Assembly: GCA_937925335.1 (NCBI GenBank)
Contig: CALEWY010000012.1
Coordinates: 14,137-78,136 of the forward strand
Length of the DNA stretch: 64,000 nt
Direction: 5' to 3'
DNA from: an uncultured Acidimicrobiales bacterium
GTDB lineage: Bacteria > Actinomycetota > Acidimicrobiia > Acidimicrobiales > SZUA-35
A program made the translations under genes and the position numbers. Positions 8,398 to 47,753 of the stretch are shown here, piece by piece. How positions within the stretch are numbered: the stretch's first letter is position 1; the number at the start of each line of letters is the position of its first letter. The notes below the pieces were generated by a model that saw only the letters and a program-made list of their open reading frames with translations, did no database searches and was not told where the DNA came from.

Positions 8398-9873
8398 GTG
8401 AACACACCATCTGTGACATCGCGGAAGCGCCCGCAACGAACCCGCTGGTTCGTCGCACTCGTTGCCAGCTTGGCCATGATCAGCGCAGCCTGCAGCGGGA
8501 GCTCTGGCGAGGCCGTCACCGAGGACGTCGAAACCGAGGCTGTCGAGACAACAGACGCGAGAGCGCCGGAGGACGAAACAGCCGAGGAAGACAGCACCGA
8601 TGACGCGGACGACGACGCGGCCGAGGACGGGGACTCTGCGAGCGTCGATGAAGAACTCATCACGATCGAGGCCGATGATGGACCGAGCTCGACGTTCGCC
8701 TCCTCGGCGATGGGAGGTGTGCGCTTCGAAGTACCCGACACCCATACGTTGCTGGTCACGGGTGATCAGTTGCTGGTCTCCACCGCAGAGGGACTGGTGG
8801 TGGGGGACGACGGGGTGTCGTTTGCGGCGGTTGCTCTGACATCACAGCTCTCGAGTGGAACGCCGATCGAAACAGCCGAGGAGTACCTCGCTGCAGCCGA
8901 AGCCGCTGATGTCGACATCGTTCCGACCGGCACAAAGATCGAGCTGCTCGGATACGAGCTGGTTGGCTACAACATGGAGGGTGACAAGGACCTGTTCACC
9001 TTCGCCAATGATCGTCGTGGCGCACCCGTCGAGAGCGGGTTCGGACCCGGAGAGAACGCCATCGAGTTCGTCGGGACCACCCCGAGCGGTGTCCTGACCG
9101 CAATCGCGTCGAATCCCGGCGGCTCGCTAGACGATTGGTTGCCCACGCTCGGGACACTTGTTGCGAGCATCGAATTCACGGGATCGGGCCTTGATCCAGC
9201 GCTGCCCGATGGAGAGGCGATTCAATTTGCCGACGAGGGCCCGCCACCACCAGCCGCCGAGGCTTCAGAGGATCCGGACGGACTCCCACCACTTGGAGAG
9301 CCGTTCTCGCCGATCGACCCCGGCCGCTACGAATTCCTGAACTTTGGCTTGTCTGTCTCGATTGATGTTCCAGGCGATTGGTTCGTTCAGCCGAACTTTC
9401 CCGGTGTCGTGGTTCTCACCCGGGCAGGAAGCATCGGGCCCGGCGATCGCGACATCGTGTTCCTGAATGACATCCGAGAGCTCGTTCCAATCGGTGGTGG
9501 TCCGATCCAGGCGGGTGACGCACTCAGCGTCGATGACATCGAGGCGATCATCAGCGATCCCCCGCCGGGAGCGATCATCGACAACGTCGAACGGTTCGAT
9601 CTCACTGCTCCAAACGGCTCGGCCACTCGTGTCATCGCGTTCGATTTCACTGGTGATCCGTCTGCGGCTTGCTCACTCGATGAGCCGTGCGACTTTGCCC
9701 TCGTCACCCCCTACGGGTTCGTCAAGAAGCTCCTGTCGACGAGCGACCAGCGGATCTGGTTCTTCCCAGAACATCCAACCGGTCCGGCCGCCGCAGTTGC
9801 CCAGAACAGTCAAGGAACCGACTTCATCGCAGAAGCGTCAGCGGTGATCGCAACGCTCGAACTCAGCCGCTGA
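8398..9873 (+). CDS. hypothetical secreted lipoprotein
   Basis: GTG start, lipobox (LAMISAACSG) and an acidic linker. No family recognised. Confidence 0.6.
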   Translation: MNTPSVTSRKRPQRTRWFVALVASLAMISAACSGSSGEAVTEDVETEAVETTDARAPEDETAEEDSTDDADDDAAEDGDSASVDEELITIEADDGPSSTFASSAMGGVRFEVPDTHTLLVTGDQLLVSTAEGLVVGDDGVSFAAVALTSQLSSGTPIETAEEYLAAAEAADVDIVPTGTKIELLGYELVGYNMEGDKDLFTFANDRRGAPVESGFGPGENAIEFVGTTPSGVLTAIASNPGGSLDDWLPTLGTLVASIEFTGSGLDPALPDGEAIQFADEGPPPPAAEASEDPDGLPPLGEPFSPIDPGRYEFLNFGLSVSIDVPGDWFVQPNFPGVVVLTRAGSIGPGDRDIVFLNDIRELVPIGGGPIQAGDALSVDDIEAIISDPPPGAIIDNVERFDLTAPNGSATRVIAFDFTGDPSAACSLDEPCDFALVTPYGFVKKLLSTSDQRIWFFPEHPTGPAAAVAQNSQGTDFIAEASAVIATLELSR

Positions 9874-15791: not shown

Positions 15792-16057
15792 CCTCGTCGT
15801 TTCCAAATTGGGCTTCCCCAGTTGGGCTTCGCATCGGCGCAACAAGGCTGCGCTCCAAGGGGCCTCCGCCGCATGCTGGTCGACCGCTGTTGTGTGCCGG
15901 AAGAGGCGCCGGTCAAGCTGCAACGGGTGGACGCCAAGATGCTGTTCATCCTGGCCAGCATCGCCCTCAGTGTGTGGTTCTTGATTCCTCTACTCGCCGA
16001 CGTCGACGACATCTGGCGCCAGGTCGAGATCCCCGCGTCGCCTTGCGGAGCTTTGCT

Positions 16058-16483
16058 CTACTCATCGAGCTCATTCGACAACGGATCGGTGCCGCTCACC
16101 GCATCGATTCGGCTGTCGCTGACCTCGACCGAACAGGTTGCGGGTGCTGCCACGGGCACTCCGAGCCACGATGACTCGACCACCGATTCGCCAGGGGCAA
16201 GCAGGTCGATCGGGTGGAGGTCGAAGTCTTTCGTCTCGCCATTGGCATCGGTGATCGAAACCAGCACGTTGAACCGGCGGTACCGGTCTTCGAGGTTGGT
16301 GATCTCAATCTCGTAGGCCGTCGTGCCTTCCGCCGTCTCAGCCTCACAACTCGTGAGCTCGATCGCGAAACTGTCCGGATCGGCGGGACCGGGGTTCGGA
16401 GCCACGCATCCAGCACACAGGCCGCTGACGATGGCTCCAAAGGCCAAGAGTTTCGATCGACGCATCGTTGGAAAGGATGTCAC
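16058..16483 (-). CDS. small lipoprotein (candidate immunity protein)
   Basis: Lipobox LCAGC after MRRSKLLAFGAIVSG. It starts 20-38 nt downstream of the hydrolase gene on the same strand. An alternative start lies at 16465. Confidence 0.55.
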   Translation of the reverse strand: MTSFPTMRRSKLLAFGAIVSGLCAGCVAPNPGPADPDSFAIELTSCEAETAEGTTAYEIEITNLEDRYRRFNVLVSITDANGETKDFDLHPIDLLAPGESVVESSWLGVPVAAPATCSVEVSDSRIDAVSGTDPLSNELDE

Positions 16484-16503
16484 GGAACCAGCGAACCTCG
16501 TTC

Positions 16504-18294
16504 TCAGCGGATGGAAACGTCGACCGCCACGCTGTCACCCGCGGTGGTGTAGCCAGCGGCATCAACGCTCTCGAAGAACGAGGTGAGCGCAGCATCGTCT
16601 GGATGGTCGTTCAGTGCCGCGATGTAGTTGTTCTGGTGATGACCGGCGCCTTCCCCATCACCCGAGAACACGTACATGATCTGGCTGTCGGTCACCTGCG
16701 TGACACCCGCATCGGGGAGGAATCCGATCGTGTCGGCGTAGAACTGCGACGTGTCGTTGTTCCACACGTCCTGCGCGATCTCGACGGGATTCGTGACGAC
16801 GTTGACGACAACCTCGTTCGGTTTGTTCGCCAGCGAACCGACGCCCCAGAGCATGTTTCCTGATGCCGTCACGCCGTCCCACATGCTGCCGGCGAAGCCT
16901 CGGGGGTCGCCGGAGAACACGGCATCGACTGCGTCGTAGGCCGCGTGAGCTGCTGCGTTCGGGTGTTCAAACGCTCGCTCAGCGAGCACCGGTAGATCGA
17001 TGTCGTTCTGAAGGATCAACACTTCGGTGTGGTCGGGGATGTGATCGAGCTGTGGCTCGGAGTGATAGGCCGCAGACACGACGTGCGTGACGTTGAAACC
17101 GTCCGGACCGTTGAACGATGAATCTGCCGCAAGGTCAGCAACCGTGTCTCCGCCATAGCTATGACCAACGAGCATGATGTTCGCCCCCGCTGGCAGCTCC
17201 TCGCGCAGGTAGCGGCGAACGAGGATTGCGTACTCGTTGTCGTCAACATCAGAACCGGTCGCCGAACGCAGTGCGTATTGATCGACGTCGCGAACCGTTT
17301 CGTTGAACGGATCCAGGCCGAATCCAGCCGGCATGGAGGAAAGGTCTGTGACGCCTGGAAGCACGACGGTGAAGGTGTTGTCGCCGTGATCGACGATCTC
17401 GAATTCGTCGTTCAGAATCTGCGTCGGATTTCCCGTGTCGGTCAGGAACTGATTGATCGCAGCGATGCCTCGATCGTGGGCATCAGCGCCATCGATCGAG
17501 AAGGGATCTCGTTCCTCGGATGTGAACTGGCCGCCGAGATCACCGTGCTGAGGTGTGTTGATCGGCGTGAAGAGACCAACGAGCCAGTCGGCAACGACGA
17601 GGCCAGGATCGTTCCCGGTCGGGAGCAACGCCATGGCGCCACGCTCGAACCAGCTTCTGTCATCGCTCGGCAGGGCGAGCGGTGACTCACCGAGTGCCGT
17701 GGCTGTCGCAGTGTTCAACCGAGATTCGTCGCCAGACAGCCGATCGTGAACACCAAGAAACGACCCGAGCGCGTCGCCGGCCGACGAGAACGCCGTCACC
17801 GCCTGATTGAAGAGCCGTTCCGAATCGCGTTCGGTTTGTTCGAGCAGCGGCCGACCGGGATCGTCGAGCGCAACCCCGTCGAGTGCACGTCGGGCTCGGC
17901 CAAGGTCGCCCCGCCGCCGATCACGCGTCTCTTTGGCCTTGCTTTCCTCGACCGCTGCTTGTTCGGCTGCCTCCCGCTCTCGGGTGTCTTCGGCGATCAA
18001 CTCGTCGAGCTCGGTTCCATGGCCTCGCAACGTTGCCTCGATCTCCGAAAGCCGAGCCGGCATCTCTGCATGATCGGCAACGACTGCGTTTGCCAGGGCG
18101 TGAAACGCATCTGCTGACAAACCTTCGAACCCGTCACCGGCGGTTGCGATCATCACGTCGACCTCGACCAACGCTTCCTCGAGTTCGACTCGTTTGGCGG
18201 CGATGTCATCGGCCGCACTTCGAAACTCGACCGGGTCGCCCTTCACGGGGTTGTCATCGATGCCGAACAGGTTCGTCCACGACCAGCCCATCAC
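16504..18294 (-). CDS. helical N-terminal domain + alpha/beta-hydrolase (GHSYG) protein, candidate secreted lipase-type effector
   Basis: 596 aa with no signal peptide. Residues 1 to about 230 are Ala/Glu/Arg-rich and helical. The C-terminal domain carries the nucleophile elbow IMLVGHSYGGDTVADL. Confidence 0.7.
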   Translation of the reverse strand: MMGWSWTNLFGIDDNPVKGDPVEFRSAADDIAAKRVELEEALVEVDVMIATAGDGFEGLSADAFHALANAVVADHAEMPARLSEIEATLRGHGTELDELIAEDTREREAAEQAAVEESKAKETRDRRRGDLGRARRALDGVALDDPGRPLLEQTERDSERLFNQAVTAFSSAGDALGSFLGVHDRLSGDESRLNTATATALGESPLALPSDDRSWFERGAMALLPTGNDPGLVVADWLVGLFTPINTPQHGDLGGQFTSEERDPFSIDGADAHDRGIAAINQFLTDTGNPTQILNDEFEIVDHGDNTFTVVLPGVTDLSSMPAGFGLDPFNETVRDVDQYALRSATGSDVDDNEYAILVRRYLREELPAGANIMLVGHSYGGDTVADLAADSSFNGPDGFNVTHVVSAAYHSEPQLDHIPDHTEVLILQNDIDLPVLAERAFEHPNAAAHAAYDAVDAVFSGDPRGFAGSMWDGVTASGNMLWGVGSLANKPNEVVVNVVTNPVEIAQDVWNNDTSQFYADTIGFLPDAGVTQVTDSQIMYVFSGDGEGAGHHQNNYIAALNDHPDDAALTSFFESVDAAGYTTAGDSVAVDVSIR

Positions 18295-18608
18295 TGCACC
18301 CCTTCGAGATTCGCCGCGACGTTTGCGTCTGCCGCTGTGAACTGCTGGTCGGTCGACACCGCGATCGCCCGCAGGTCGTCAACTCGTTCCTGTAGTGCAA
18401 GCAGCGCGGCATCAACACCAGCGATCACATCGCCGTGAGCACTTGTCACGTCGCCCGCACCCGAGAACTCCCTCGATTGCACCGATGCGCCGCCGGCGAT
18501 CATTTGTACAACTCGACTCGCAACGTCAGCGGTTGCGCCGAGCACGCTGGATCGAATCAGAATCCCTGCCATCGCTCGAGCATGAGCGAAGTCGGTCGAC
18601 GACAACAT
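18291..18608 (-). CDS. small helical EspC/WXG100-like protein
   Basis: 105 aa from ATG 18608, preceded by a GGGGGAG SD. It is Ala/Val-rich helical and ends ...VSTDQQFTAADANVAANLEGVQ. Its stop overlaps the next start (ATGA). Confidence 0.55.
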   Translation of the reverse strand: MLSSTDFAHARAMAGILIRSSVLGATADVASRVVQMIAGGASVQSREFSGAGDVTSAHGDVIAGVDAALLALQERVDDLRAIAVSTDQQFTAADANVAANLEGVQ

Positions 18609-18728
18609 GGGGACCACTCCCCCAGCCGCTTCTCGGCGAAAACCTGACTCCACATTTGGGCTCTGACGGCTACCGTCGCCTTCGTCCGGATCCGGCGGGA
18701 AGACCGCACCTCAGACGATGGAGCCACG

Positions 18729-21568: not shown

Positions 21569-22264
21569 TCACTCGCGGGTTCGCACATCCAAGTCATCGA
21601 GCGCTCCCACGTTGAGGTCGACTCGGCCGTCGACTCCCTCAACCCAATACACACCGCCAAGTTGCCAGATCGGCAGGGGCTCACCGGGTCGGCGTAGGAA
21701 GTTGAGCGCCCACTCCGGACGGTCGAACCACTCGAATGGTTGGTAGACCTCGACGAATTCTGCGCCGACATTGAACACCAGCTCGCGACCAGCCGCTTGT
21801 TCGACCAACTCGACGAAGGTTGAGAGTTCGGTCTTCATCTCCCCCCGGCTCGGCAACGTTGTGCAGTTGCCAGCGATCTCCAGGTCGACCGCGGGTGGAA
21901 GGTCGGCCGAATCAAAGTCGACGATCGAGATGAAGTGATCAGCTTGCTCGCGACCCGGCGAGCAGAATGTGAAGAAGTGATAGGGACCGATCAGCAAGTC
22001 GGTGGCCGAGGATGCACGCCAGTTCTCCTCGAATCGGGGGTCGATCCAATCCATGCCCTCGGTCGCTTTGATGTAGACAAACTCAGCTTCAGAATCGGCA
22101 ACAGCTGGCCAGTCGATCGGGCCTTGATGGTGCGAAACATCGATCCCGAAGACTTCTCCTGACTCGAGGCCAGGGCGGTAGTTCGGAAGCCACCACCACC
22201 AGACGATCGTTGCGACAAGCGCAACACTCAGTACACATCCGCTCAACCATTTGAGAACCCGCAC
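21569..22264 (-). CDS. GH25 muramidase with N-terminal membrane anchor
   Basis: GIDVSHHQGPIDW...FVYIKATEG...GPYHFF motifs follow the TM segment LSVALVATIVWWWWL. Confidence 0.85.
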   Translation of the reverse strand: MRVLKWLSGCVLSVALVATIVWWWWLPNYRPGLESGEVFGIDVSHHQGPIDWPAVADSEAEFVYIKATEGMDWIDPRFEENWRASSATDLLIGPYHFFTFCSPGREQADHFISIVDFDSADLPPAVDLEIAGNCTTLPSRGEMKTELSTFVELVEQAAGRELVFNVGAEFVEVYQPFEWFDRPEWALNFLRRPGEPLPIWQLGGVYWVEGVDGRVDLNVGALDDLDVRTRE

Positions 22265-22909: not shown

Positions 22910-24439
22910 CTACGAACCGGAATCGACCACCGTGATCGTGATCGTCCGGGTCACCCCAGCGTCGCCCCCTGCATCGGCTTCATCGAATGGTGTGACGGAG
23001 ATGACGAATTCTCCCGGGACGAGATCCCACTGGCCGTAGTGGCTGTAGTCACCTTGCTGGTCTCCAAACATGGCAAACGGCAGGACGCTCTCGATTCGGA
23101 TGTGTTCGCCGTCGTTGAGATCGAATCGAACGCTCGCCACATCGACCGTTGCGTCGGCTCGCATGTTGAGCGCCGAACCAATCTCCGCGATGTCGAGAAC
23201 CTGGCCATCGTGAAGGCCGACGACATCCTCGTCAGTCTCGGCATCGACCAGCGTGAGGCCGGTCACACCCGCCGGCCACGATGCTGGAGGTCGATCGTCG
23301 ACGACCGTGAAGGAGAGGACCGTCGCCTCCGCCCGCTCGCCGGAACGGTTTGGCCCAGAGAATGGCGTCACCGAAACCTGGATCGGCCCGGGTGTTGGCG
23401 TCCAACCGCCACCGGGAGCCATGACGAACGGCGCCGCTGAATCCGTCGCTCCTCGGCGATCGACGACGAAACGAACGCTGATCACATCAGCACCAGCATC
23501 CGCCTTGATGCCGAATCGGTCGGGAAGGTCGGTGAGGTTCACGGTGGCACCATCGGTCACCTGAACCGCTTCGACGCCTGTCGCAGGGTCGGTGATCACG
23601 ATCGACCGAATCAAGAGATCGAGCGGCGCTGGATCACCCGAGTCGAAGACTGGCGCATCGTCGGTGATGCCCTCGTCAGCGGTGCCGTCAGCGCCCTGCC
23701 CCGTGTCGTCAGCACTGCCGTCAGCGCTGCCGCCACCAGGACCGACGGTGCCGTCATCAGAGCGGGAGTGGGTGGATTCAGAATCATCAGAGCCATCGAC
23801 GACGTTGGTCGAGTCGTCGGCGGTTGCATCGGTCGACACGGCTCCGTCGTCACTTCCGGACACCCCTGATGCCTCGTCGGTCAGGTCGACCGGATCGTCA
23901 CCACCTGGGATCGGCAGGCCTTCAAGATCTCGACTGGAGCCGGTGTCATCCCCAAATGGCAGCTCGGATACTTCTGGCACCGAGTCGGCCGGCGTTTCGG
24001 TCAACACTTGGCTCGCTCCGGTCGCAGCGAGCCCAACGACGACCAGAACCGCAGCCGCGACGGCTCCGAGGAAGGCGAAGCGCCGGCGGTTGCCTTCGGG
24101 TTGCGCCGATCCCGGGAACGCAAGAACGTTCTCACCACCAGCGCCGCCTGCTGGATCCTCGTCGAACTCGTTCCAGTCGAAGGACGTCGGCGCAAGATCT
24201 GCGTTGGTGTCGGGGTCGAGCAGCACAACCGGAGCCAACACGTCGTTGTCATTCGAGCAATCGTTGTCTGGGGTAGCGAGCGAGGCTCGGACGTCACGAG
24301 CGGACCGGGCGGCGAGCGCGCTCACCCATGACCCGTCGACGTCAGCGGCGAGCTCGGCATTGACCGAGTCGGTCCAGTCGTCGAATATCTCTTGTTCACC
24401 AGCGCTGAGCTGGTCCATCTCTTCGTCGCGCATCGTCAT
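22910..24439 (-). CDS. anti-sigma factor with two extracytoplasmic beta-sandwich-like repeats
   Basis: ATG 24439 overlaps the sigma stop (ATGA). It has one TM helix (FAFLGAVAAAVLVVVGLAATGA), an acidic linker, then two repeats of about 110 aa that are homologous to repeats in the 25185..28631 protein. Confidence 0.65.
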   Translation of the reverse strand: MTMRDEEMDQLSAGEQEIFDDWTDSVNAELAADVDGSWVSALAARSARDVRASLATPDNDCSNDNDVLAPVVLLDPDTNADLAPTSFDWNEFDEDPAGGAGGENVLAFPGSAQPEGNRRRFAFLGAVAAAVLVVVGLAATGASQVLTETPADSVPEVSELPFGDDTGSSRDLEGLPIPGGDDPVDLTDEASGVSGSDDGAVSTDATADDSTNVVDGSDDSESTHSRSDDGTVGPGGGSADGSADDTGQGADGTADEGITDDAPVFDSGDPAPLDLLIRSIVITDPATGVEAVQVTDGATVNLTDLPDRFGIKADAGADVISVRFVVDRRGATDSAAPFVMAPGGGWTPTPGPIQVSVTPFSGPNRSGERAEATVLSFTVVDDRPPASWPAGVTGLTLVDAETDEDVVGLHDGQVLDIAEIGSALNMRADATVDVASVRFDLNDGEHIRIESVLPFAMFGDQQGDYSHYGQWDLVPGEFVISVTPFDEADAGGDAGVTRTITITVVDSGS

Positions 24440-25184: not shown

Positions 25185-28100
25185 TCAGCCGACCCGAGGT
25201 GACTCGGGCCGACTGAGGTCGGTGGCGGTGTTGGTGGCAACATCCCCGCCGTCTCCGTTGCCGGAGCGATAGAGAACAAATCGATCGATGCGGTGACCCG
25301 CCGAACGACCAGAGATCTCGATCGTGTAGGTGCCTGGTGAATCGAAGCGAGCAAACACGGAGTGGGCGTCGCTGTCGCTGGTGTTCGACGTCCAACCGAA
25401 CTGGCCGTTCGATCCGCCGGATCGGAAGATCTTGAACCAACCATCCTTCGTGGCTCCCTCAACGATCGGTCCGGAGCAGTCATTGCCAGGAAGCGGATGA
25501 CGTGGGCACTTGATGCTGGAGCCACGCTCGCCATAGAAGGAGTCGCCGTGGATCCGGAGCCATGAATCGTTCGACTCGGTCGGGTTCGTTCCTTCGCCGA
25601 AGGCGTTGTACCACTGGAAGCGATAGCTGCCGGGTTCGTCGATCTGGACCTGCACGGTGATGGTGCCATTGCCAGGTGTGCCGAAGTTGTTCGATCCGCC
25701 CCACTTGATGGAGCTACGGCCGGCCTGGGTGTGGGTGGTCCACGGGCTCGGTGCGTTCAACGACTCCGACTCGACAACCACCACACCATCAACCGCCTGG
25801 AACGCACCGTCGCTTGACGGTTGGGTGGTCGGTGCTTGGGTGGTCGGCGCTTGCGTAGTCGGCGCTTGCGTAGTCGGCGCTTGGGTCGTTGGCGGCTGGG
25901 TCGTTGGCGGCTGCGTTGTCGGAGCTTGGGTCGTTGGTGAGGTCGACGAGCGGACCACCTGGACGGTGATCGAGCGTGTCGTACCCGCCGTTCCCTGGGC
26001 GCCGTCGGCGCCAAACGGTGTGGCGGCAATGGTGTAGGTGCCGGGTGCGGGCGACCACTTGAGGTAGTCGCTGTTTCGATCACCGGCGAGGGCGTACGGA
26101 GCGATGTTCTCAACCCGCAGACGGTTGCCGTTCAGGTCGAATCGGACACTCTCCACGCTGGCGGCTGCGTCCGCTCGAACGTTGAGCGAGGAACCAACAG
26201 CCGAGAGATCGATGACCGAGCCGTCGACGAGCGCTCCGAGATCTTGATCGGTGTTGGAGTCGACGAGCACGAAGCCCGAGATGTCGCTCGATGGCACGGT
26301 TGTTGGAGCGGTGGTGGTCGGCGCAGCGGTCGTCGGGACCGTTGCGTCGTCGATGATCGTCACCGTGATCGTTCGACTCTCACCAGCCGATCCACTCGCG
26401 CCTTGCTCGGTGTAGGGCGTTGCCGAGATCGTGTGAGTGCCAAGCGTCGGCTCCCACGAATCGAAGTAGTCACCATCGGTGTCCCCAAAGAGGGCGAACG
26501 GTGCAACGTTCTCAAGACGGAACCGCTGGTTGCCATCGAGACCAAACCGAACGCTCGAAGTGTCAGCTCCGGCGTTCGCCCGAATCGTGATGGACGAGCC
26601 AACGTCGGCGAGGTTGATGACCGCACCATCGGTGAGACCCGCTATGTCGGTGTCAGAATCCGCGTCGACGAGCACGAACCCGTCGATCAGGTTTCCAGTC
26701 GTCGGAGCAGCGGTTGTTGGAGCCTGGCTCGTTGGTGCTGCCGTGGTCGGTGGCTGGGTCGTTGGAGCCTGCGTGGTCGGTGGCACGGTGCCGTCGAGGG
26801 TCAACATCACCGCCCAGTCCTCACCGGTTTGGTTCGGCGCCGATCCGAGATCGACCGTTGCGCCACCCGTGACCGAGCCGCTCCTCGTGTATTCGCCGGT
26901 GCGTGGGTTGAACCACGAGACGATGTAGGTGGCGCTGTCGCCCCTCAGATCGAGACGGAGGTTGGAGCCGGTGCGGTCGTTGAAGACGGCGTAGCTCTCA
27001 CCGGGCTTGGCGAGCACGTAGGTGTTGCCTGTTGGGCCGCTGCCGAGGTTGTGGTTCGGTGCCATCTCCTGCACCGGCAACACATCGAAGAAGCCTGTTG
27101 CGTAGCCGGTCCACGTGAGGGCCGGGCCGAGGATGGAGAAGTCGTCGATCTGCTGGTCGAAGCTGTGGCCGCCGCCGTCTTGTTGGACGTACCACTCAAA
27201 GCCGCCACCACCGCTCATGTAGAGCGGCCACATCTTGTCTCGACGAGCTGCGATGTAGCCGCGCGTCGTGTCGGTGAGGTCGTTGTGAATCGGTTGGGGT
27301 TCGTCCATCGACACGACGAGAGGCGTGCCGGCAGCAGCGGAACGATCACGCCATTCGATGACGAGGTCCGACATATCGGTGCGGGACTGGGTTCCCTGGA
27401 AGGCCGTGATGTCAAAGTCCTCATTGCCGAGAAGCGGTCCGTAGAACTCCTCGAACCGGTTGGTATGCGTGTGTGTGGTCACGGCGTTGTCGTAGCCGTC
27501 GATGCTCTTCAGGTAGTCGGCGAACTCACGATGGCGAGCGGTTCCGTAATCGTTCTCCTCGCCGATGTCCCACTCGACGCCGAGGTTGTGGCCAAAGCGT
27601 GCGACGAGCTCTCGGTAGAAGAGGCGCCGTTCGTTGCCGAGCTGTCCGTTATCGAAGAAGTTCTCGTTGCCGGGTTCGGTCTCGGCCAACACGATGTGGA
27701 GGTAGATGCCCTGTGTTTGAGCGTGGTCGAACACCATGCCCCATTGATCGAGCTTCGAAAGGTCGTAGCGGCTTCGCTCTGTCTCGCTCACCATCGGGAA
27801 GGTGTCCCGGCCGTCGCCGCCGAGATTCATCGGCAGGAAGTAGATGTTGTTCGCACCGGTGCGGTTCAAATAGTTGAGGGCGCCGATGATGGCGCGGCCG
27901 TCGTTGAGCCCAGGGTTGTCGGGAGAGTCCCAATCGGGATCGCCGGGGTTCCAGTCGCCAACGTGCGAATCGAAGTCGTGGCCAGCGTCTGGTGTGTTGT
28001 CAAAGCCGACATAACCAAGGAAGTTCTCGGGGATGTTGGCGCCGCCCTTGATGAACGCATCGCCGCTGCCTTCGAACGTGAGGTAGTGCCCGCCGGTGTT

Positions 28101-28631
28101 CGTGATGCGACCGTTGTTCGTGTTGCGGAAGTCAGACTCCGGTTTGTCCGACGGGGCGACGTCGAAACTTCCGGACTCACCATCGAAGAACGCAGCATTG
28201 CCCGCGTTCGGGTCGGCGGCGACGGACACGTTTGCGCCGGATCGGAAGCTCGCTTCATACGTCCAACGACCGGTGGTTGGCGGCGCGAAGTTGGCCTGCC
28301 ATTGATCGCCGCTGCCTCCGCCGGATCCATCACCGGCGTAGAAGCCGGGAACGGTGATCGATCGCGAGCCTTGCGTGAAGGTCACGTCGAGCCGGTAGTC
28401 GAGGAACGGATTGACGAGTGCAGACTCGGAGGTTTGCGGGCCCGAGAAACTCACCGTGGTGCGGTGCCATTGCATCGTGTCGCCGGAGACTGCTGCATCG
28501 TCGGCCGGCATCAGCGCAGCGATCGCAGGAACGACGTCGGTCGTTGCGATCGCCGCCCCCGAAAGCAGCGTGGCAGCGACCGCAAGGGCGCAGGTGCGAG
28601 ACCGGAACGATGAGCGGTGAGGGAAAGGCAT
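25185..28631 (-). CDS. secreted multidomain DUF5060 + GH5-like glycoside hydrolase with Pro/Thr linkers, two beta-sandwich repeats and a C-terminal CBM-like domain
   Basis: 1148 aa with a signal peptide. The DUF5060 pattern is present (WHRTTVSFSGPQTSE..NPFLDYRLDVTF..VPGFYAGDG). A TIM-barrel-like core follows. There are three (A/Q)PTT linkers and a C-terminal domain (DGVVVVESESL...HRIDRFVLY). Confidence 0.8.
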   Translation of the reverse strand: MPFPHRSSFRSRTCALAVAATLLSGAAIATTDVVPAIAALMPADDAAVSGDTMQWHRTTVSFSGPQTSESALVNPFLDYRLDVTFTQGSRSITVPGFYAGDGSGGGSGDQWQANFAPPTTGRWTYEASFRSGANVSVAADPNAGNAAFFDGESGSFDVAPSDKPESDFRNTNNGRITNTGGHYLTFEGSGDAFIKGGANIPENFLGYVGFDNTPDAGHDFDSHVGDWNPGDPDWDSPDNPGLNDGRAIIGALNYLNRTGANNIYFLPMNLGGDGRDTFPMVSETERSRYDLSKLDQWGMVFDHAQTQGIYLHIVLAETEPGNENFFDNGQLGNERRLFYRELVARFGHNLGVEWDIGEENDYGTARHREFADYLKSIDGYDNAVTTHTHTNRFEEFYGPLLGNEDFDITAFQGTQSRTDMSDLVIEWRDRSAAAGTPLVVSMDEPQPIHNDLTDTTRGYIAARRDKMWPLYMSGGGGFEWYVQQDGGGHSFDQQIDDFSILGPALTWTGYATGFFDVLPVQEMAPNHNLGSGPTGNTYVLAKPGESYAVFNDRTGSNLRLDLRGDSATYIVSWFNPRTGEYTRSGSVTGGATVDLGSAPNQTGEDWAVMLTLDGTVPPTTQAPTTQPPTTAAPTSQAPTTAAPTTGNLIDGFVLVDADSDTDIAGLTDGAVINLADVGSSITIRANAGADTSSVRFGLDGNQRFRLENVAPFALFGDTDGDYFDSWEPTLGTHTISATPYTEQGASGSAGESRTITVTIIDDATVPTTAAPTTTAPTTVPSSDISGFVLVDSNTDQDLGALVDGSVIDLSAVGSSLNVRADAAASVESVRFDLNGNRLRVENIAPYALAGDRNSDYLKWSPAPGTYTIAATPFGADGAQGTAGTTRSITVQVVRSSTSPTTQAPTTQPPTTQPPTTQAPTTQAPTTQAPTTQAPTTQPSSDGAFQAVDGVVVVESESLNAPSPWTTHTQAGRSSIKWGGSNNFGTPGNGTITVQVQIDEPGSYRFQWYNAFGEGTNPTESNDSWLRIHGDSFYGERGSSIKCPRHPLPGNDCSGPIVEGATKDGWFKIFRSGGSNGQFGWTSNTSDSDAHSVFARFDSPGTYTIEISGRSAGHRIDRFVLYRSGNGDGGDVATNTATDLSRPESPRVG

Positions 28632-28999
28632 AACGAGAACTCCTGGAGGGTGATGAATCCAAACGAGACGTGCTGTTCATGACCGACGCGTGTTTGCTTC
28701 GTGAGTCCGCGCCGATTCAGAGACGTCAACGGGCCGCCCGGCGCAGGTGTTACGGGTCGGGCAGAACTCCTCGGGCGTGTGAGGCGTTTGGCCTCACCCT
28801 TGTTGCCACATGATCAGCGACACACCCAAGGTTGATCAGTCACAGAACGTGCGGACCCAACACCGTTTGCGGCCATTACCTGTCGGTAACTTTCTCGCGA
28901 CTTTGAAGGTGCTTCGGGGGTCTGATTTCTGACGCCACAGTGACGTCGACGCGGTCGCCCACCGGCCGCAACCCCCGTATGAAGGAAGTACCCCCGACC

Positions 29000-31177
29000 A
29001 TGGCAATGTTCCAAGAACTGGGCGAGTTGTTGTCCAGCAGCGGCGACCTCGGCACAGCCTCACGAGCAATCGGTTCCGACGACGAAGGCACGCGATCCGC
29101 GCTCGCCTCGGCCGTCCCTGTTCTGCTGGGCAGCCTCGGAAAACGAACGAACAGTCCCGGAGGTGCATCAGCGCTCTTCGACCTCGTCAAGGGTCAGGAC
29201 GGATCGATTCTGACGAACCTCGGCGCTGCGTTCAGCGACAGCGACGACAGCGGCCTCAACAGCTCGTTCGTCGACGGACTCCTCGGCGGCGGCAAGGAGC
29301 AGGTCTCACAAGGTCTCTCACAACAGACCGGCCTCGGCACTGGCCAGATCGCAAAGCTCCTGCCGATGCTCGCACCGATCGTGCTGGGCTTTCTCGGGAA
29401 GAAGCAGACCGACGGCAACCTCGACCAGGCCGGACTCGTCGGCTCGTTGGCGAACGAACGAGTGGCGATGGAGTCGGCTGGCTTCGGCTCGCTCCTCGGC
29501 CTGCTCGACAGCGGTGACGCAGAAGAAGACGACCGAGGCTTCCTCGGAAGCATGGGAACCATGACCGGCCTCGGCGGACTCGCAGCCGGCACCGCAGCGG
29601 CCAGCCAACTCACCGGCCGCGCCGGTGAAGGACTGAGCGGAGCCGCTGATGGCCTTGCCGGCCGCGCCGGTGAAGGACTGAGCGGCAGCAGCGATGGACT
29701 CGCTGCGGCTCGCGGAGGAATCGACGGTGCAGCTGACAAGCTCACCGGAGGAGCTGCGGCGGCAGCAGGTGGCGTGTCCGACGGAGTCACCGGTGCGGCT
29801 GACAAGCTCGCCGGTGGCGCCGCGGCCACCGTTGGTGGAGTGGCTGGCGGAGTCACCGGCGCGGCAGGCGGCATGACCGACAAGGTCACCGGTGCGGCAG
29901 GCGGTGCAGCCGGCAAGGTGACCGGCGCGGCAGGCGGTATGACCGACAAGGTCACCGGTGCCGCTGCAGGAGTTGCTGGTGGAGTCACCGGTGCTGCAGG
30001 CGGTATGGCGGGCAAGGTGACCGGTGCGGCAAAGGCGCCCTCCACCGCAGTTCGCAACACAACCGGCGCAGCCGGAGCCGCTGTGGCAACACCCGTGATG
30101 GCTCATGACGACGACCGCAAGGGCGGGGCGCTCAAGTGGCTCCTTCCGTTGCTGCTCGTTGGAGTCATCGGCGTTGGTCTCTGGGCCGCATTCAGCGGTG
30201 GAGACGACGAGGATGTCGCAGCCACCGCCGACAACGCCGCAACAACGACCCAGCTCGAAGAGATGGCTGACGAGGTCGAAGAGATGGCCGACGAAGTCGC
30301 GATGACCGACGAAGACGGTGCTGACCACTCTGACGGCGCCGACGACGCGATGGCCGACGACGAGGCAATGGAAGACGACGAGGATGCGATGGCAGACGGA
30401 TCGGCCGACGGTTTCGTCGCCGGCAACATCCTCGACGCTGGCGACAAAGACGGTCAGGTCAGCGGGTTCTTGGGTGCGGTCTCCGCAACGGGACTCAACG
30501 CTGAACTCGACGGTGAGGGCCCACTCACGATCTTTGCTCCAAGCGACGAAGCGCTTGCCTCGCTGCCCGAGTCGATCACGAGTGATCCCGAGAAGCTCGA
30601 GCGAGTGCTTCGCAACCACGTCGTGTCCGGCGACTTCCCGGCCGATGCTCTCGTCGACGGCCCGCTCACCTCACTCGATGGATCAGACCTCAACGTTTCG
30701 CTCGGGTCCGGCAGCCCCGTGATCAACGGCGCAAACGTGGTCACCGCCAACCTCGGCGGCGGCAACGGAACGATGCACGTGATCGATCGGGTTCTCCTCC
30801 CAGCCGATTTGATCAGCGCTGCTGGCGGCTCGCTCAATGAGGCGCTTGGCATCCAGCCGATCAACTTCGAAGTGGGATCAGCCGTGATCACCGCAGACAG
30901 CACCGCGGTCCTCGACGGTGCCGCTGACTTCCTCATCACAAACGGAACGGTCGTTGAGATCGCCGGTCACACCGATGCTGATGGCAACGATGCATCGAAC
31001 CTCGCACTGAGCCAGGCTCGGGCCGAGTCGGTCATGGCCTACCTCACCGAGAAGGGTGTAGCCGCCGAGAACATGACGGCGGTTGGCTACGGCGAGACCG
31101 AGCCGATCGCGAGCAACGACACGCCAGAGGGCAAGGCGGAGAACCGCCGCATCGAGTTCGTCGCCTCGGCGAGCTAA
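29000..31177 (+). CDS. DUF937 - Gly/Ala repeat - TM - acidic region - fasciclin (FAS1) - OmpA_C mosaic protein
   Basis: SD AAGGAAG precedes ATG 29000. The segments are DUF937-like (LLGSLGKR...LLPMLAPIVLGFLGKKQ), FAS1 (PLTIFAPSDEA...GTMHVIDRVLLP) and OmpA_C (GHTDADGNDASNLALSQARAESV...NRRIEFV). Confidence 0.8.
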   Translation: MAMFQELGELLSSSGDLGTASRAIGSDDEGTRSALASAVPVLLGSLGKRTNSPGGASALFDLVKGQDGSILTNLGAAFSDSDDSGLNSSFVDGLLGGGKEQVSQGLSQQTGLGTGQIAKLLPMLAPIVLGFLGKKQTDGNLDQAGLVGSLANERVAMESAGFGSLLGLLDSGDAEEDDRGFLGSMGTMTGLGGLAAGTAAASQLTGRAGEGLSGAADGLAGRAGEGLSGSSDGLAAARGGIDGAADKLTGGAAAAAGGVSDGVTGAADKLAGGAAATVGGVAGGVTGAAGGMTDKVTGAAGGAAGKVTGAAGGMTDKVTGAAAGVAGGVTGAAGGMAGKVTGAAKAPSTAVRNTTGAAGAAVATPVMAHDDDRKGGALKWLLPLLLVGVIGVGLWAAFSGGDDEDVAATADNAATTTQLEEMADEVEEMADEVAMTDEDGADHSDGADDAMADDEAMEDDEDAMADGSADGFVAGNILDAGDKDGQVSGFLGAVSATGLNAELDGEGPLTIFAPSDEALASLPESITSDPEKLERVLRNHVVSGDFPADALVDGPLTSLDGSDLNVSLGSGSPVINGANVVTANLGGGNGTMHVIDRVLLPADLISAAGGSLNEALGIQPINFEVGSAVITADSTAVLDGAADFLITNGTVVEIAGHTDADGNDASNLALSQARAESVMAYLTEKGVAAENMTAVGYGETEPIASNDTPEGKAENRRIEFVASAS
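29615..30035. repeat. in-frame tandem repeats (about 45-bp and about 36-bp periods) encoding GRAGEGLSG and GAAGGMTDKVTG units
   Basis: ggccgcgccggtgaaggactgagcgg occurs at 29615 and 29660. ggcggtatgaccgacaaggtcaccggtgc-type units recur between 29860 and 30035. Confidence 0.8.
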
Positions 31178-46433: not shown

Positions 46434-47753
46434 TCAGAGTCGGGCTTGGCCTTCGGGTGATTCGGCGAAACCGACGAGCACGTGCCAGCGCGAGGTGGCT
46501 TCGGCGCGCTCGACCCAGAACTCCAGACCACCGGCATCAGGTTCTCGACCGAAGACGATTCGGTAGGTCTGTTCGACGAAGGCTTCGGTGTCGGAGAGCC
46601 CGAAGCGAGCTTCGTATTCGGGGCTGTTGCCGATTAACGCGGCAAGTTCGACGAGTGAATCGCCACCTTGGAAACGAGCGGTCCAGTAGTAGCCGCCGGC
46701 CGATTCAGGTTCGCGCCCGAGCACGGCGACGTACAAGCGTCGAACGGACGGGTCGATCAACTCGCTTGCGATCTCGTCGACGAAGTCGTCGGACTGCGCC
46801 GCGTCAACCAGCGCATCGACGCTCACCGGTTCTTCGCCAGCGAATCGCGTCACGAACTCGTCGCCGGAAGCGATCCACGCTGCAACCTCTTCGAGTGTTC
46901 GACCGTTGCGGCACTGATCGATCCAGAAGGTGAGCGCTGCGGCATCGGGCAACCGGCCGAACGCCTGCTGGTAGAGCCGCTGGATCTGGAACTGCGCTTC
47001 TTCGTGCGCTTCGATTGCGATTCTCGGTTCAGGCAGGTCCTGAATGAACCAACGGGGGTTAACGGGAACACCACCGAGTCGAGTCTCGAAGTGCAGGTGT
47101 GCTCCGGTCACCCGGCCGGTTCGCCCGATCTGGCCGATCAATTGGCCAGCCTCGACGACGTCGCCGACGGCGACATTGAAGGCTGAAAGATGAGCCGACA
47201 CGGTCGAGAAACCGTCGCCGTGATCGACCACGATGGCGTTGCCGTAGCCACCGATCGAACGAGCCGCCACGACCGTTCCGGGAGCGAGCGCTTGCACCGG
47301 AACACCGACTGGATGCACGACATCGATGCCGTTGTGCCACCGAAGGGTTCGGTAGATCGGATGGATTCGATTGCCAAACCGAGCGAGTGCTGGGAGACCA
47401 GCGATCGGGACCGGGCTCGGCACAAACTCTGAGAGGTCCGTGGGGACGGTGTAGTCCGCCGACCCGATCACATCGCGATAGAGCGAGTCGACTCGGAACG
47501 TTGCGGCGAGGTGGGCTTCTCGCTCGGCTCGGATCTGCGCAACGTCGATCGAGGTGAGCTCCTCTGTTGCGAAGAAGCAGCTGACCGGCGGTTGTGTCAC
47601 TGCGGCGTCCGGTGCGATCGACTTGCCGATGCTCGCATCGTCGCCGGGCGCGCCGCTCTCAGGCACTCCCCCGTTTGCGGTGTCGATCGGCGCACTGAGT
47701 ACGCCAACAACACACACCACAAAGACCGCGACTCTCCCTCTCCACCAACTCAC
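46434..47753 (-). CDS. M23 family metallopeptidase with C-terminal DUF4214 repeats
   Basis: HNGIDV...GGYGNAIVVDHGDG...GAHLHFE M23 motifs. Three DUF4214-like repeats follow (FGR.PD..GL.FW). Confidence 0.85.
   Translation of the reverse strand: MSWWRGRVAVFVVCVVGVLSAPIDTANGGVPESGAPGDDASIGKSIAPDAAVTQPPVSCFFATEELTSIDVAQIRAEREAHLAATFRVDSLYRDVIGSADYTVPTDLSEFVPSPVPIAGLPALARFGNRIHPIYRTLRWHNGIDVVHPVGVPVQALAPGTVVAARSIGGYGNAIVVDHGDGFSTVSAHLSAFNVAVGDVVEAGQLIGQIGRTGRVTGAHLHFETRLGGVPVNPRWFIQDLPEPRIAIEAHEEAQFQIQRLYQQAFGRLPDAAALTFWIDQCRNGRTLEEVAAWIASGDEFVTRFAGEEPVSVDALVDAAQSDDFVDEIASELIDPSVRRLYVAVLGREPESAGGYYWTARFQGGDSLVELAALIGNSPEYEARFGLSDTEAFVEQTYRIVFGREPDAGGLEFWVERAEATSRWHVLVGFAESPEGQARL

Follow-up and report, generated by a model that had tools for sequence, protein, structure and literature searches.

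Does a compact group of three genes in an uncultured actinobacterium encode a secreted toxin together with its export partner and its immunity protein, and by which route would such a toxin leave the cell? The genes lie in a stretch of 64,000 nucleotides (nt) from an uncultured Acidimicrobiales bacterium of the class Acidimicrobiia (GenBank assembly GCA_937925335.1, contig CALEWY010000012.1), hereafter called the window, and encode a small helical protein, a predicted hydrolase of 596 amino acids (aa) and a putative lipoprotein. A first-pass annotation, made from the letters alone, had likened this triad to a lipase toxin-immunity module of a secretion system of type VII (T7SS). Our comparative analysis indicates that the triad is probably an 'orphan' T7SS cargo module of the EssC/WXG100 type, encoded away from the secretion genes, in which the lipoprotein would protect the producer.

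Layout of the gene triad

The three tightly packed genes, all on the minus strand, were confirmed as open reading frames (ORFs) at the coordinates that had been proposed for them (Table 1). The first-pass annotation had also described the stop codon of the small gene as overlapping the next start in the form ATGA; the overlap stands, whereas the literal ATGA does not, as the junction reads GTGATG and the two genes share 4 nt with the GTG start of the hydrolase gene (GTGA) or 1 nt with its ATG start. The lipoprotein gene begins 20 nt (GTG) or 38 nt (ATG, the 135-aa form that is on record) after the hydrolase stop, in agreement with the earlier description of a product of about 140 aa starting 20-38 nt downstream. 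The GC content at the three codon positions is coding-like for the hydrolase gene (0.69/0.44/0.71) and for the lipoprotein gene (0.61/0.49/0.73), while the small ORF (0.71/0.50/0.63) has a weaker coding signal than the other two. Besides, a near-identical copy of the whole triad was found on an independent metagenome contig (L066). The domain architecture, homologies, conserved motifs and gene linkages described for this unit and its relatives are demonstrated features.

N-terminal domain and its linkage to type VII secretion genes

The hydrolase protein, for which a missing signal peptide and a charged helical N-terminal region had been noted, indeed lacks a signal peptide as well as any transmembrane (TM) segment or cysteine (highest 19-residue Kyte-Doolittle mean, 1.03), and Asp, Glu, Arg, Ala and Leu abound in its first 249 residues. 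As far as sequence can tell, it has the general features of a T7SS substrate, namely a helical N-terminal domain, no signal peptide and a translationally coupled small helical partner. Among the families that the first-pass annotation had named for profile searches, WXG100 (Pfam PF06013) was matched at residues 18-95 with 28.0 bits (E = 2.7e-6) for the whole protein and 30.5 bits for the isolated domain against a gathering cut-off of 27.3 bits, which is reached by just two of the eight members of the N-domain family. In contrast, LXG (PF04740), Abhydrolase_8/DUF1023 and T7SS_signal gave no Pfam match at E <= 1 for the window protein, nor did LXG for the eight N-domain family members. The NCBIfam model WXG100_ESAT6 (TIGR03930) scored the N-domain at 24 bits, below its cut-off of 44.85, as it did the small WXG100 genes of related loci (24-39 bits), and a search of the PDB with the N-domain family profile retrieved EsxA (3zbh) at E = 0.008 amid coiled-coil noise.

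The window N-domain was aligned over about 205 aa with seven others, from L022 (two genes), L023, L035, P0051, P0056 and P0057 (alignment A7). W6, P16 and G19 are invariant in this alignment, and a [W/F/L]-x-G turn and an HxxxLxxL motif are conserved. The seven domains come from six loci with partner genes, four of which also carry an ATPase, and the profile of A7 additionally matches L051 and, weakly, the WXG100 partner-1 proteins. Window-type N-domains are present in L022, L023, L035, L051, L067, L068/L069 and L070. The gene order common to window-type loci is partner 1 (about 97 aa), partner 2 (about 93 aa, helical), the toxin, a conserved protein of about 220-250 aa, an FHA protein and an ATPase of 1,383-1,441 aa with an FHA domain and FtsK/SpoIIIE domains. 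Partner 1 is on record as Pfam WXG100 in L067 and L070, and in L023 its TIGR03930 match lies below the cut-off. The FHA-bearing ATPase follows in all four clean window-type loci with enough flank (L022, L023, L067 and L070) and in the fragmented L051; within the available flanks, 13 loci have an ATPase at most 10 kb from a gene of the hydrolase family. When full-length ATPases of L022, L023, L028 and L064 were scanned, all four scored 270-549 bits with the EssC/EccC models of NCBIfam against 23-57 bits with FtsK. All of them are below the equivalog cut-offs and are therefore divergent, and their identification as generic FtsK DNA translocases was rejected because the EssC/EccC scores are about ten times higher.

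Two of the related loci show how cargo and secretion genes can be arranged. L028 has, in order, a WXG100-like gene, a 336-aa gene of no known family, the ATPase, a WXG-fronted hydrolase and a lipoprotein of the window type. In L064, the ATPase and a 90-aa WXG100 gene precede three larger genes that share one WXG N-terminus and end in a CHAP domain, a C-terminus without known family and the hydrolase, respectively; such an arrangement looks like the signature of interchangeable toxin cargo. The two non-hydrolase genes of this small polymorphic effector array, one of them encoding the CHAP protein, are L064:7146-8042 and L064:8085-8963.

The FHA-bearing ATPases of Acidimicrobiia metagenome-assembled genomes (MAGs) measure 1,380-1,600 aa and carry an FHA domain at the N-terminus along with several FtsK/SpoIIIE domains (L022:7588-11913, L023:11619-15770, L028:4653-8990, L032:3784-8583, L059:1983-6311, L061:3607-7941, L063:3421-7833, L064:2237-6688 and L065:3514-7842). 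Their neighbors are WXG100 genes and separate FHA proteins, joined in L028 by a Ser/Thr kinase that has WD40 repeats. The protein of about 220-250 aa encoded between the toxin and the FHA/ATPase genes (L023:10933-11622, L067:4108-4872, L068:4607-5335 and L070:3363-4022) has no Pfam or NCBIfam match. Its L023 and L067 copies have '...F G. A L P P E W ...' in common close to the N-terminus, and its possible roles include those of a core component, a chaperone and an immunity protein of the cytoplasm.

The absence of Ecc/Ess machinery from the window had already been remarked upon, and it was borne out: no T7SS component family is among the matches listed for the 51 other window ORFs against Pfam (25 of the 27 families of the batch scan are listed). 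Accordingly, no such ATPase was seen in these 64 kb, while homologous loci have a linked ATPase whose best matches are EssC/EccC models. T7SS-type targeting, as proposed in the first-pass annotation, is favored by the WXG100 score and by the homologous N-domains beside EssC/EccC-type ATPases, and it is weakened by the single partner gene, where related loci have two.

These data also bear on a simpler explanation, in which the enzyme would be a cytoplasmic hydrolase with a helical regulatory N-domain, would have nothing to do with secretion, and would owe its WXG100 match to a coiled-coil artefact. A WXG100 score barely over the threshold, the coiled-coil noise that also appears in the PDB profile search (spike HR1 and designed helical proteins) and a window without secretion genes all agree with it. 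Nevertheless, the N-domain family adjoins EssC-type ATPases and WXG100 genes wherever the contig permits a check, the partner keeps its FxxxD/E motif, other homologues carry textbook WXG N-termini (e.g., L028, L034 and L059-L064) and some are fused to peptidoglycan-binding domains, so that we consider this explanation the least probable of those weighed here.

The small partner protein

The small protein had been proposed as a T7SS-type partner, and several comparisons argue in favor of this role. It aligns without gaps, end to end, with partner 2 of the related loci (MAFFT alignment A9), it was the sole match outside the family when the partner-2 profile was run against 7,848 ORFs (E = 0.0062), and hhalign paired it with partner 2 at E = 6.8e-4 and a probability of 27%. 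Its F48-S-G50 takes the position of the W-x-G of WXG100 proteins, and its FTAAD lines up with the invariant FxxxE of full-length partner-2 proteins. It has been demonstrated that F/YxxxD/E motifs on T7SS partners are needed for export (PMC10730906), which makes FTAAD a candidate T7SS-type export motif of the partner. From these alignments, the small protein appears to be a divergent member of the partner-2 family.

A word-indexed search of 5.8 billion proteins returned the small protein itself only, and a full HMMER scan of 1.84 billion proteins returned just low-complexity, Ala-rich matches. Alternative starts are a GTG at 18653 (120 aa) and an ATG at 18572 (93 aa), the latter giving the form that is on public record for the contig; the 105-aa start has the better Shine-Dalgarno sequence, and the N-terminus of the partner-2 family fits the 93-aa start. 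About 120 nt separate the small gene from a divergent M3 peptidase gene, and therefore there is no room for a partner 1 at this place.

The catalytic domain

The 64 homologues share just the C-terminal 58% or so of the window protein and differ in their N-termini. The C-terminal alpha/beta hydrolase with a nucleophile elbow, described earlier from the letters, found support: S379, D433 and H552 are invariant in an alignment of 50 diverse homologues, and Ser379 stands in the GHSYG (G-x-S-x-G) of the elbow. In an AlphaFold2 model of the domain built from 32 sequences (predicted local distance difference test, pLDDT, 80.7; predicted template modelling score, pTM, 0.81), each of the Ser, Asp and His comes after a strand (domain residues 123-129, 175-181 and 289-294), in the canonical order, and helices inserted with lower confidence between core strands 7 and 8, the last two, could form a lid. 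On the basis of this model and of the invariant residues, the predicted assignment as a Ser-Asp-His alpha/beta hydrolase is well supported.

The enzyme class is less clearly placed. The domain belongs to no Pfam or NCBIfam family and has no solved relative according to a sequence-profile search of the PDB. The window hydrolase scored 13.3 bits with Abhydrolase_1, below the Pfam cut-off of 25.8, and the matches of the 50 homologues to PGAP1 (5 of 50, best E = 9.5e-4), Abhydrolase_1 (5 of 50) and Lipase_3 (4 of 50, best E = 0.038) were likewise all sub-threshold; Abhydrolase_8 is absent from the 25 families listed for these homologues. A Foldseek search of the PDB gave no significant fold match, with class-3 lipases, cutinases and thioesterases at the top of the list (best E = 0.05). 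The term lipase used in the first-pass annotation is thus kept as a reasonable guess that reflects the nearest sub-threshold fold neighborhood, the PGAP1 and Lipase_3 matches being below threshold and found in homologues alone. Membership in the LXG, DUF1023 or TslA-type families was rejected, as no matches were obtained.

Long hydrophobic, TM-like stretches lie between the N-domain and the hydrolase domain in some window-type homologues (P0051, P0057 and L022:2442-4421, residues about 250-330), unlike the window protein, which is charged at the linker position.

The lipoprotein as a candidate immunity protein

The predicted lipoprotein begins MRRSKLLAFGAIVSGLCAGC, with MRRSK, LLAFGAIVSGL and C-A-G-C20 as candidate charged n-region, hydrophobic h-region and lipobox. 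Cys20 aligns with the lipobox cysteine (AAC, ASC, SGC, GAC or TGC) of eight of the nine other members, and the Cys at position -3 is atypical. C40, C111 and G92 are invariant in the family and C20 nearly so, and the two invariant cysteines fit a disulfide-bonded protein located outside the cytoplasm. A single-sequence AlphaFold2 model shows a seven-strand beta-sandwich (pLDDT 64), for which a fold search returned just generic beta-sandwich matches; DUF576 is not among the Pfam matches, and the word-indexed search of 5.8 billion proteins found the query only. We propose, from its sequence and its modelled fold, that the lipoprotein represents a new two-cysteine beta-sandwich family.

A profile built from trimmed domains was used to search about 1.2 Mb of Acidimicrobiia DNA and found 11 distinct family members, at the window and at 10 other loci. 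Each of the 11 follows a gene of the hydrolase family on the same strand, at a distance of -3 to about +124 nt, and no member was found elsewhere. The hydrolases that they accompany belong to at least five clades of a neighbor-joining tree, have four N-terminal types and are 35-50% identical to one another, indicating that the lipoprotein tracks the catalytic domain and not the N-terminal type, and so behaves as immunity genes do. The product is probably an immunity protein or an inhibitor of the hydrolase, a candidate role suggested by these gene linkages. Accordingly worded claims of the first-pass annotation, which had placed the lipoprotein in an immunity position, are sustained by the way the family follows the hydrolase across clades and N-terminal types, and are weakened by the homologous loci that lack it: about 50 of some 65 do, so the enzyme family is not always paired and may not always be self-toxic.

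The lipoprotein gene could also be merely a neighbor with an unrelated envelope role, the functional unit then consisting of partner and hydrolase. The many hydrolase loci without a lipoprotein, the fold matches to generic small beta-sandwich proteins alone and the origin of all the family examples from loci selected for the hydrolase are compatible with such a view, and a metagenome search for the family independent of the hydrolase gave 238 pattern matches, none of which was confirmed. However, the constant position and strand of 11 out of 11 members and their association with divergent hydrolases that have different N-termini make a mere neighbor very unlikely.

Distribution and architectures of the hydrolase family

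A scan of 185,579 species genomes yielded 62 loci, none of them a close match to the window. Nearly all come from Acidimicrobiia MAGs (Ilumatobacter, Ilumatobacteraceae and Acidimicrobiaceae), and a few from MAGs labelled as Proteobacteria, labels that may reflect binning errors. Within Acidimicrobiia the hydrolase domain occurs on at least five helical N-terminal types, namely the window type, textbook WXG types (e.g., '...GGFWEGDDA...'), a type of about 120 aa found in 461-aa proteins, and two further helical types. The Proteobacteria-labelled homologues have Pro-rich or peptidoglycan-binding N-termini and a conserved C-terminal extension of about 250 aa; examples are P0004/L005, P0006, P0008, P0027 and P0032, which stand in housekeeping contexts, and no secretion genes were seen near these homologues in the contexts inspected.

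In the deepest hydrolase clade (L061, L063 and L065), a membrane protein of about 370 aa (L061:10874-11995 and the same position in the other two) is encoded directly after the hydrolase and matches the MprF-like Pfam family LPG_synthase_TM, with E = 4e-16 in the case of L061. If the enzyme is directed at lipids, a membrane protein that modifies lipids would be a fitting occupant of the 'immunity' slot.

The distribution also includes a clade of about 15 loci that is monophyletic, in which the hydrolase lies directly upstream of clpB with its catalytic residues intact. It looks vertically inherited, in which case some family members would not be self-toxic weapons. The clpB-linked loci are L006-L015, L027, L031, L037, L040 and L042, with the hydrolase (about 461 aa) at about 9.5-11 kb; in every one of them a small gene lies upstream and overlaps the hydrolase gene, and both of the partner sequences that were inspected have PPAPW... 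at their end.

Such loci provide the best argument for an alternative function, in which the protein would be a T7SS-exported housekeeping or nutritional enzyme that remodels lipids or esters of the producer's own envelope or releases nutrients, and the lipoprotein would serve as a membrane-anchored regulator, a chaperone or a docking partner instead of conferring immunity. Comparable cases among mycobacteria are LipY and further secreted hydrolases. The fixed position of the clpB-linked genes, without a gene in the immunity slot, suggests vertical inheritance of a useful enzyme, the window locus itself sits amid housekeeping genes without compositional anomaly, and in L048-L057 the hydrolase is followed by a protein of about 590 aa that belongs to no identified family. 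On the other hand, the shuffling of the hydrolase domain onto at least five targeting domains, the L064 array with a CHAP protein behind the same WXG N-terminus (an arrangement typical of polymorphic toxins), the lipoprotein that follows the catalytic domain in the manner of immunity genes, and the very fast evolution of lipoprotein and partner, for which the search of 5.8 billion proteins found the queries alone, all disagree with a housekeeping function, and we regard it as unlikely, if still the rival to be taken most seriously.

Proposed mechanism and weight of the evidence

The orphan cargo module that we favor would work as follows. The small protein would pair with the N-terminal helical domain to form a helical bundle with a composite export signal, made up of the [W/F]-x-G turn and the FxxxD of the partner, which would be recognized by an EssC-type ATPase encoded elsewhere in the genome. 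Once exported, the Ser-Asp-His hydrolase would attack an ester or a lipid of the cell envelope, most probably in competing bacteria, and the lipoprotein, tethered on the outer face of the producer membrane, would bind and block the enzyme, thus protecting the producer and its kin. The peptidoglycan-binding fusions of other homologues were taken as support for an envelope site of action. Secretion, substrate, toxicity and inhibition are predicted steps of this scheme, and the steps that the first-pass annotation had itself flagged as going beyond observation each appear to be supported by independent comparative evidence.

Several observations weigh against the proposed mechanism. The WXG100 match of the N-domain is marginal, the homology of the partner is weak (hhalign probability 27%), no partner-1 homologue is present in the window, leaving one partner versus two in related loci, and the Pfam scan of the other ORFs revealed no T7SS gene in the 64 kb. 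In L002, the nearest relative by its hydrolase (52% identity), partner and lipoprotein are both missing and no ORF is a credible partner, the clpB-linked clade has no gene in the immunity position, and most homologous loci are without the lipoprotein. In addition, the Cys at position -3 of the lipobox is unusual, and the enzyme class depends on a best Foldseek E of 0.05 and on sub-threshold PGAP1 and Lipase_3 matches. As called, the family members at L024 (about 10.8-11.2 kb) and L025:10791-11201 also have no signal peptide or lipobox, their N-termini being Gly/Gln/Arg-rich or charged, and these versions are either miscalled at the start or cytoplasmic.

A wider reading, which we put forward tentatively and hold to be doubtful as a whole, would make the hydrolase the founding member of an unrecognized, phylum-crossing envelope toxin domain, carried by T7SS targeting domains in Acidimicrobiia and by peptidoglycan-binding or other scaffolds in Proteobacteria-labelled MAGs, and accompanied by a new immunity family of two-cysteine beta-sandwich lipoproteins and an undescribed T7SS of Acidimicrobiia; as part of the same proposal, a T7SS variant with an FHA-bearing ATPase would use single-partner 'orphan' modules scattered on the chromosome.

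Genomic context of the triad

The neighbors of the triad are housekeeping genes (glutamine synthetase, DUF1905, M3 peptidase, DinB and GH25 lysozyme), and the GC content of the window is 61-65% without local anomaly. A prophage or mobile-island origin was set aside because the GC content is flat and the neighboring genes are housekeeping genes. A promoter and terminator scan performed no better than on shuffled sequence.

Table 1. Coordinates of the triad genes and of their domains and motifs in the 64,000-nt window.
Feature	Position	Strand	Basis or remark
Small helical partner gene	18291..18608	-	ORF, 105 aa from ATG
F48-S-G50 hairpin-turn motif of the partner	18459..18467	-	F48 and G50 invariant (alignment A9)
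FTAAD (FxxxD), partner residues 90-94	18327..18341	-	Candidate C-terminal T7SS-type export motif
Hydrolase-effector gene	16504..18294	-	ORF, 596 aa from GTG, 595 aa from ATG
Predicted effector: helical targeting domain, linker and alpha/beta-hydrolase domain	16504..18294	-	ORF and domain searches
N-terminal helical domain, residues 1-205, WXG100-like	17680..18294	-	Pfam, alignment A7
[W/F/L]-x-G turn of the N-domain, DGFEG	18121-18135	-	Alignment A7
HxxxLxxL of the N-domain	17998-18021	-	Alignment A7
Linker, residues 206-249	17548..17679	-	Not conserved among homologues
Alpha/beta-hydrolase domain, residues 250-596 (about 345 aa)	16507..17547	-	64 homologues, alignment, AlphaFold2 model
Nucleophile elbow IMLVGHSYGGDTVADL, residues 373-388	17131-17178	-	Sequence
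Ser379	17158-17160	-	Invariant residue
Asp433	16996-16998	-	Invariant residue
His552	16639-16641	-	Invariant residue
Putative lipoprotein gene	16058..16483	-	141 aa from GTG 16483; 135 aa from ATG 16465
Putative lipobox Cys20	16406-16408	-	Family alignment
Cys40	16346-16348	-	Family alignment
Cys111	16133-16135	-	Family alignment

An ORF on the plus strand (15822-16316) extends across the 3' end of the lipoprotein gene. The part at 15822-16057 is coding-like (codon-position GC 0.67/0.46/0.79) and includes the hydrophobic stretch MLFILASIALSVWFLIPLL, and the overlapping part is not coding-like; the ORF may have arisen by chance or encode a small membrane protein convergently with the triad. Four window genes match envelope or cell-wall Pfam families, namely a GH25 lysozyme (21569-22264, minus strand), an M23 peptidase with DUF4214 repeats (46434-47753, minus), a DUF937-fasciclin-OmpA protein (28940-31177, plus) and a 1,148-aa protein of the DUF5060/collagen-binding type (25185-28631, minus). 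Two window ORFs have no Pfam match (22910-24439, 509 aa; 8398-9873, 491 aa).

Comparison with known systems

A close parallel in layout is offered by the Eat loci of Mycobacteriales and other Actinomycetota, in which TapA1/TapA2, EatA and EatI form an ESX-4 dependent system (Benedict et al., Nat Commun 2026, PMC13444075). In both cases, and in the same phylum, one or more small helical accessory genes come first, next the toxin, whose elongated helical N-domain is joined to a C-terminal enzyme, and last a small lipoprotein inhibitor, the roles of toxin and inhibitor being predicted for the window. According to the survey of Eat loci, alpha/beta hydrolases also belong to the payloads predicted most often, and lipoprotein immunities go with predicted extracellular targets (PMC13444075). 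However, the payload is a GH183 arabinanase there and an unclassified alpha/beta hydrolase here, there are two accessory genes there and one in the window, the Acidimicrobiia are absent from that paper (PMC13444075), and the ATPases of the window's relatives have an FHA domain, unlike mycobacterial EccC. The likeness is one of layout, the window proteins having been set beside TapA, EatA and EatI by description.

T7SSd, an Actinomycetota-specific subtype with the FHA-bearing ATPase TsdC, is known through a description in Olsenella and Bifidobacterium (Garrett et al., Microlife 2024, PMC11217815). The clusters of the window's relatives resemble it in having an FHA-bearing EssC-type ATPase, WXG100 genes, a Ser/Thr kinase (L028) and separate FHA proteins. 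They differ in that Acidimicrobiia are not mentioned in that work (PMC11217815) and the window has none of these genes.

The T7SSb phospholipase A toxin TslA of Staphylococcus aureus, encoded with TilA and TlaA1-TlaA2, is neutralized by a lipoprotein, requires helical partners for export and is toxic from outside the cell only (PMC10730906). The window triad shares with it the Ser-Asp-His hydrolase payload, the lipoprotein partner and a small helical partner, export and inhibition being predictions in our case. In TslA, however, the lipase is N-terminal and an LXG-like domain C-terminal, whereas the window protein has the canonical order with the helical domain first; two partners are encoded downstream and the immunity protein, a DUF576 lipoprotein, upstream; and the window proteins have neither DUF576 nor a significant lipase-family match in Pfam. 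The LXG toxins with Lap1/Lap2 (T7SSb, Bacillota) also resemble the triad: the genes of small helical partners, one of which carries F/YxxxD/E, lie upstream, the toxin has a helical targeting N-domain about 200 aa long and a C-terminal part that varies, and the immunity gene comes last. The window N-domain is WXG100-like, has no Pfam LXG match at E <= 1 and comes from another phylum.

Further afield, the Tle phospholipases of type VI secretion systems (T6SS) with their periplasmic or lipoprotein Tli proteins are GxSxG serine hydrolases that act on the envelope and are paired with immunity proteins outside the cytoplasm, as is proposed for the window. Tle4 is PGAP1-like, and the sub-threshold PGAP1 matches of 5 of the 50 homologues recall the Tle4 family; these matches stay below threshold, there are no T6SS genes or T6SS-type N-domains, and the delivery system is another.

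Acidimicrobiia are abundant in soils, freshwater and the sea, and few have been cultured. Our literature search found no paper mentioning both this class and type VII secretion. If the proposed role is true, T7SS-mediated antagonism would extend to Acidimicrobiia with the same logic of helper, toxin and lipoprotein immunity. It would also add three protein families that are annotated in no library (the hydrolase domain, the lipoprotein and the partner), in a compact three-gene unit suited to tests in a heterologous host. The concept itself would be unchanged, since the same layout has already been described for mycobacteria and staphylococci.

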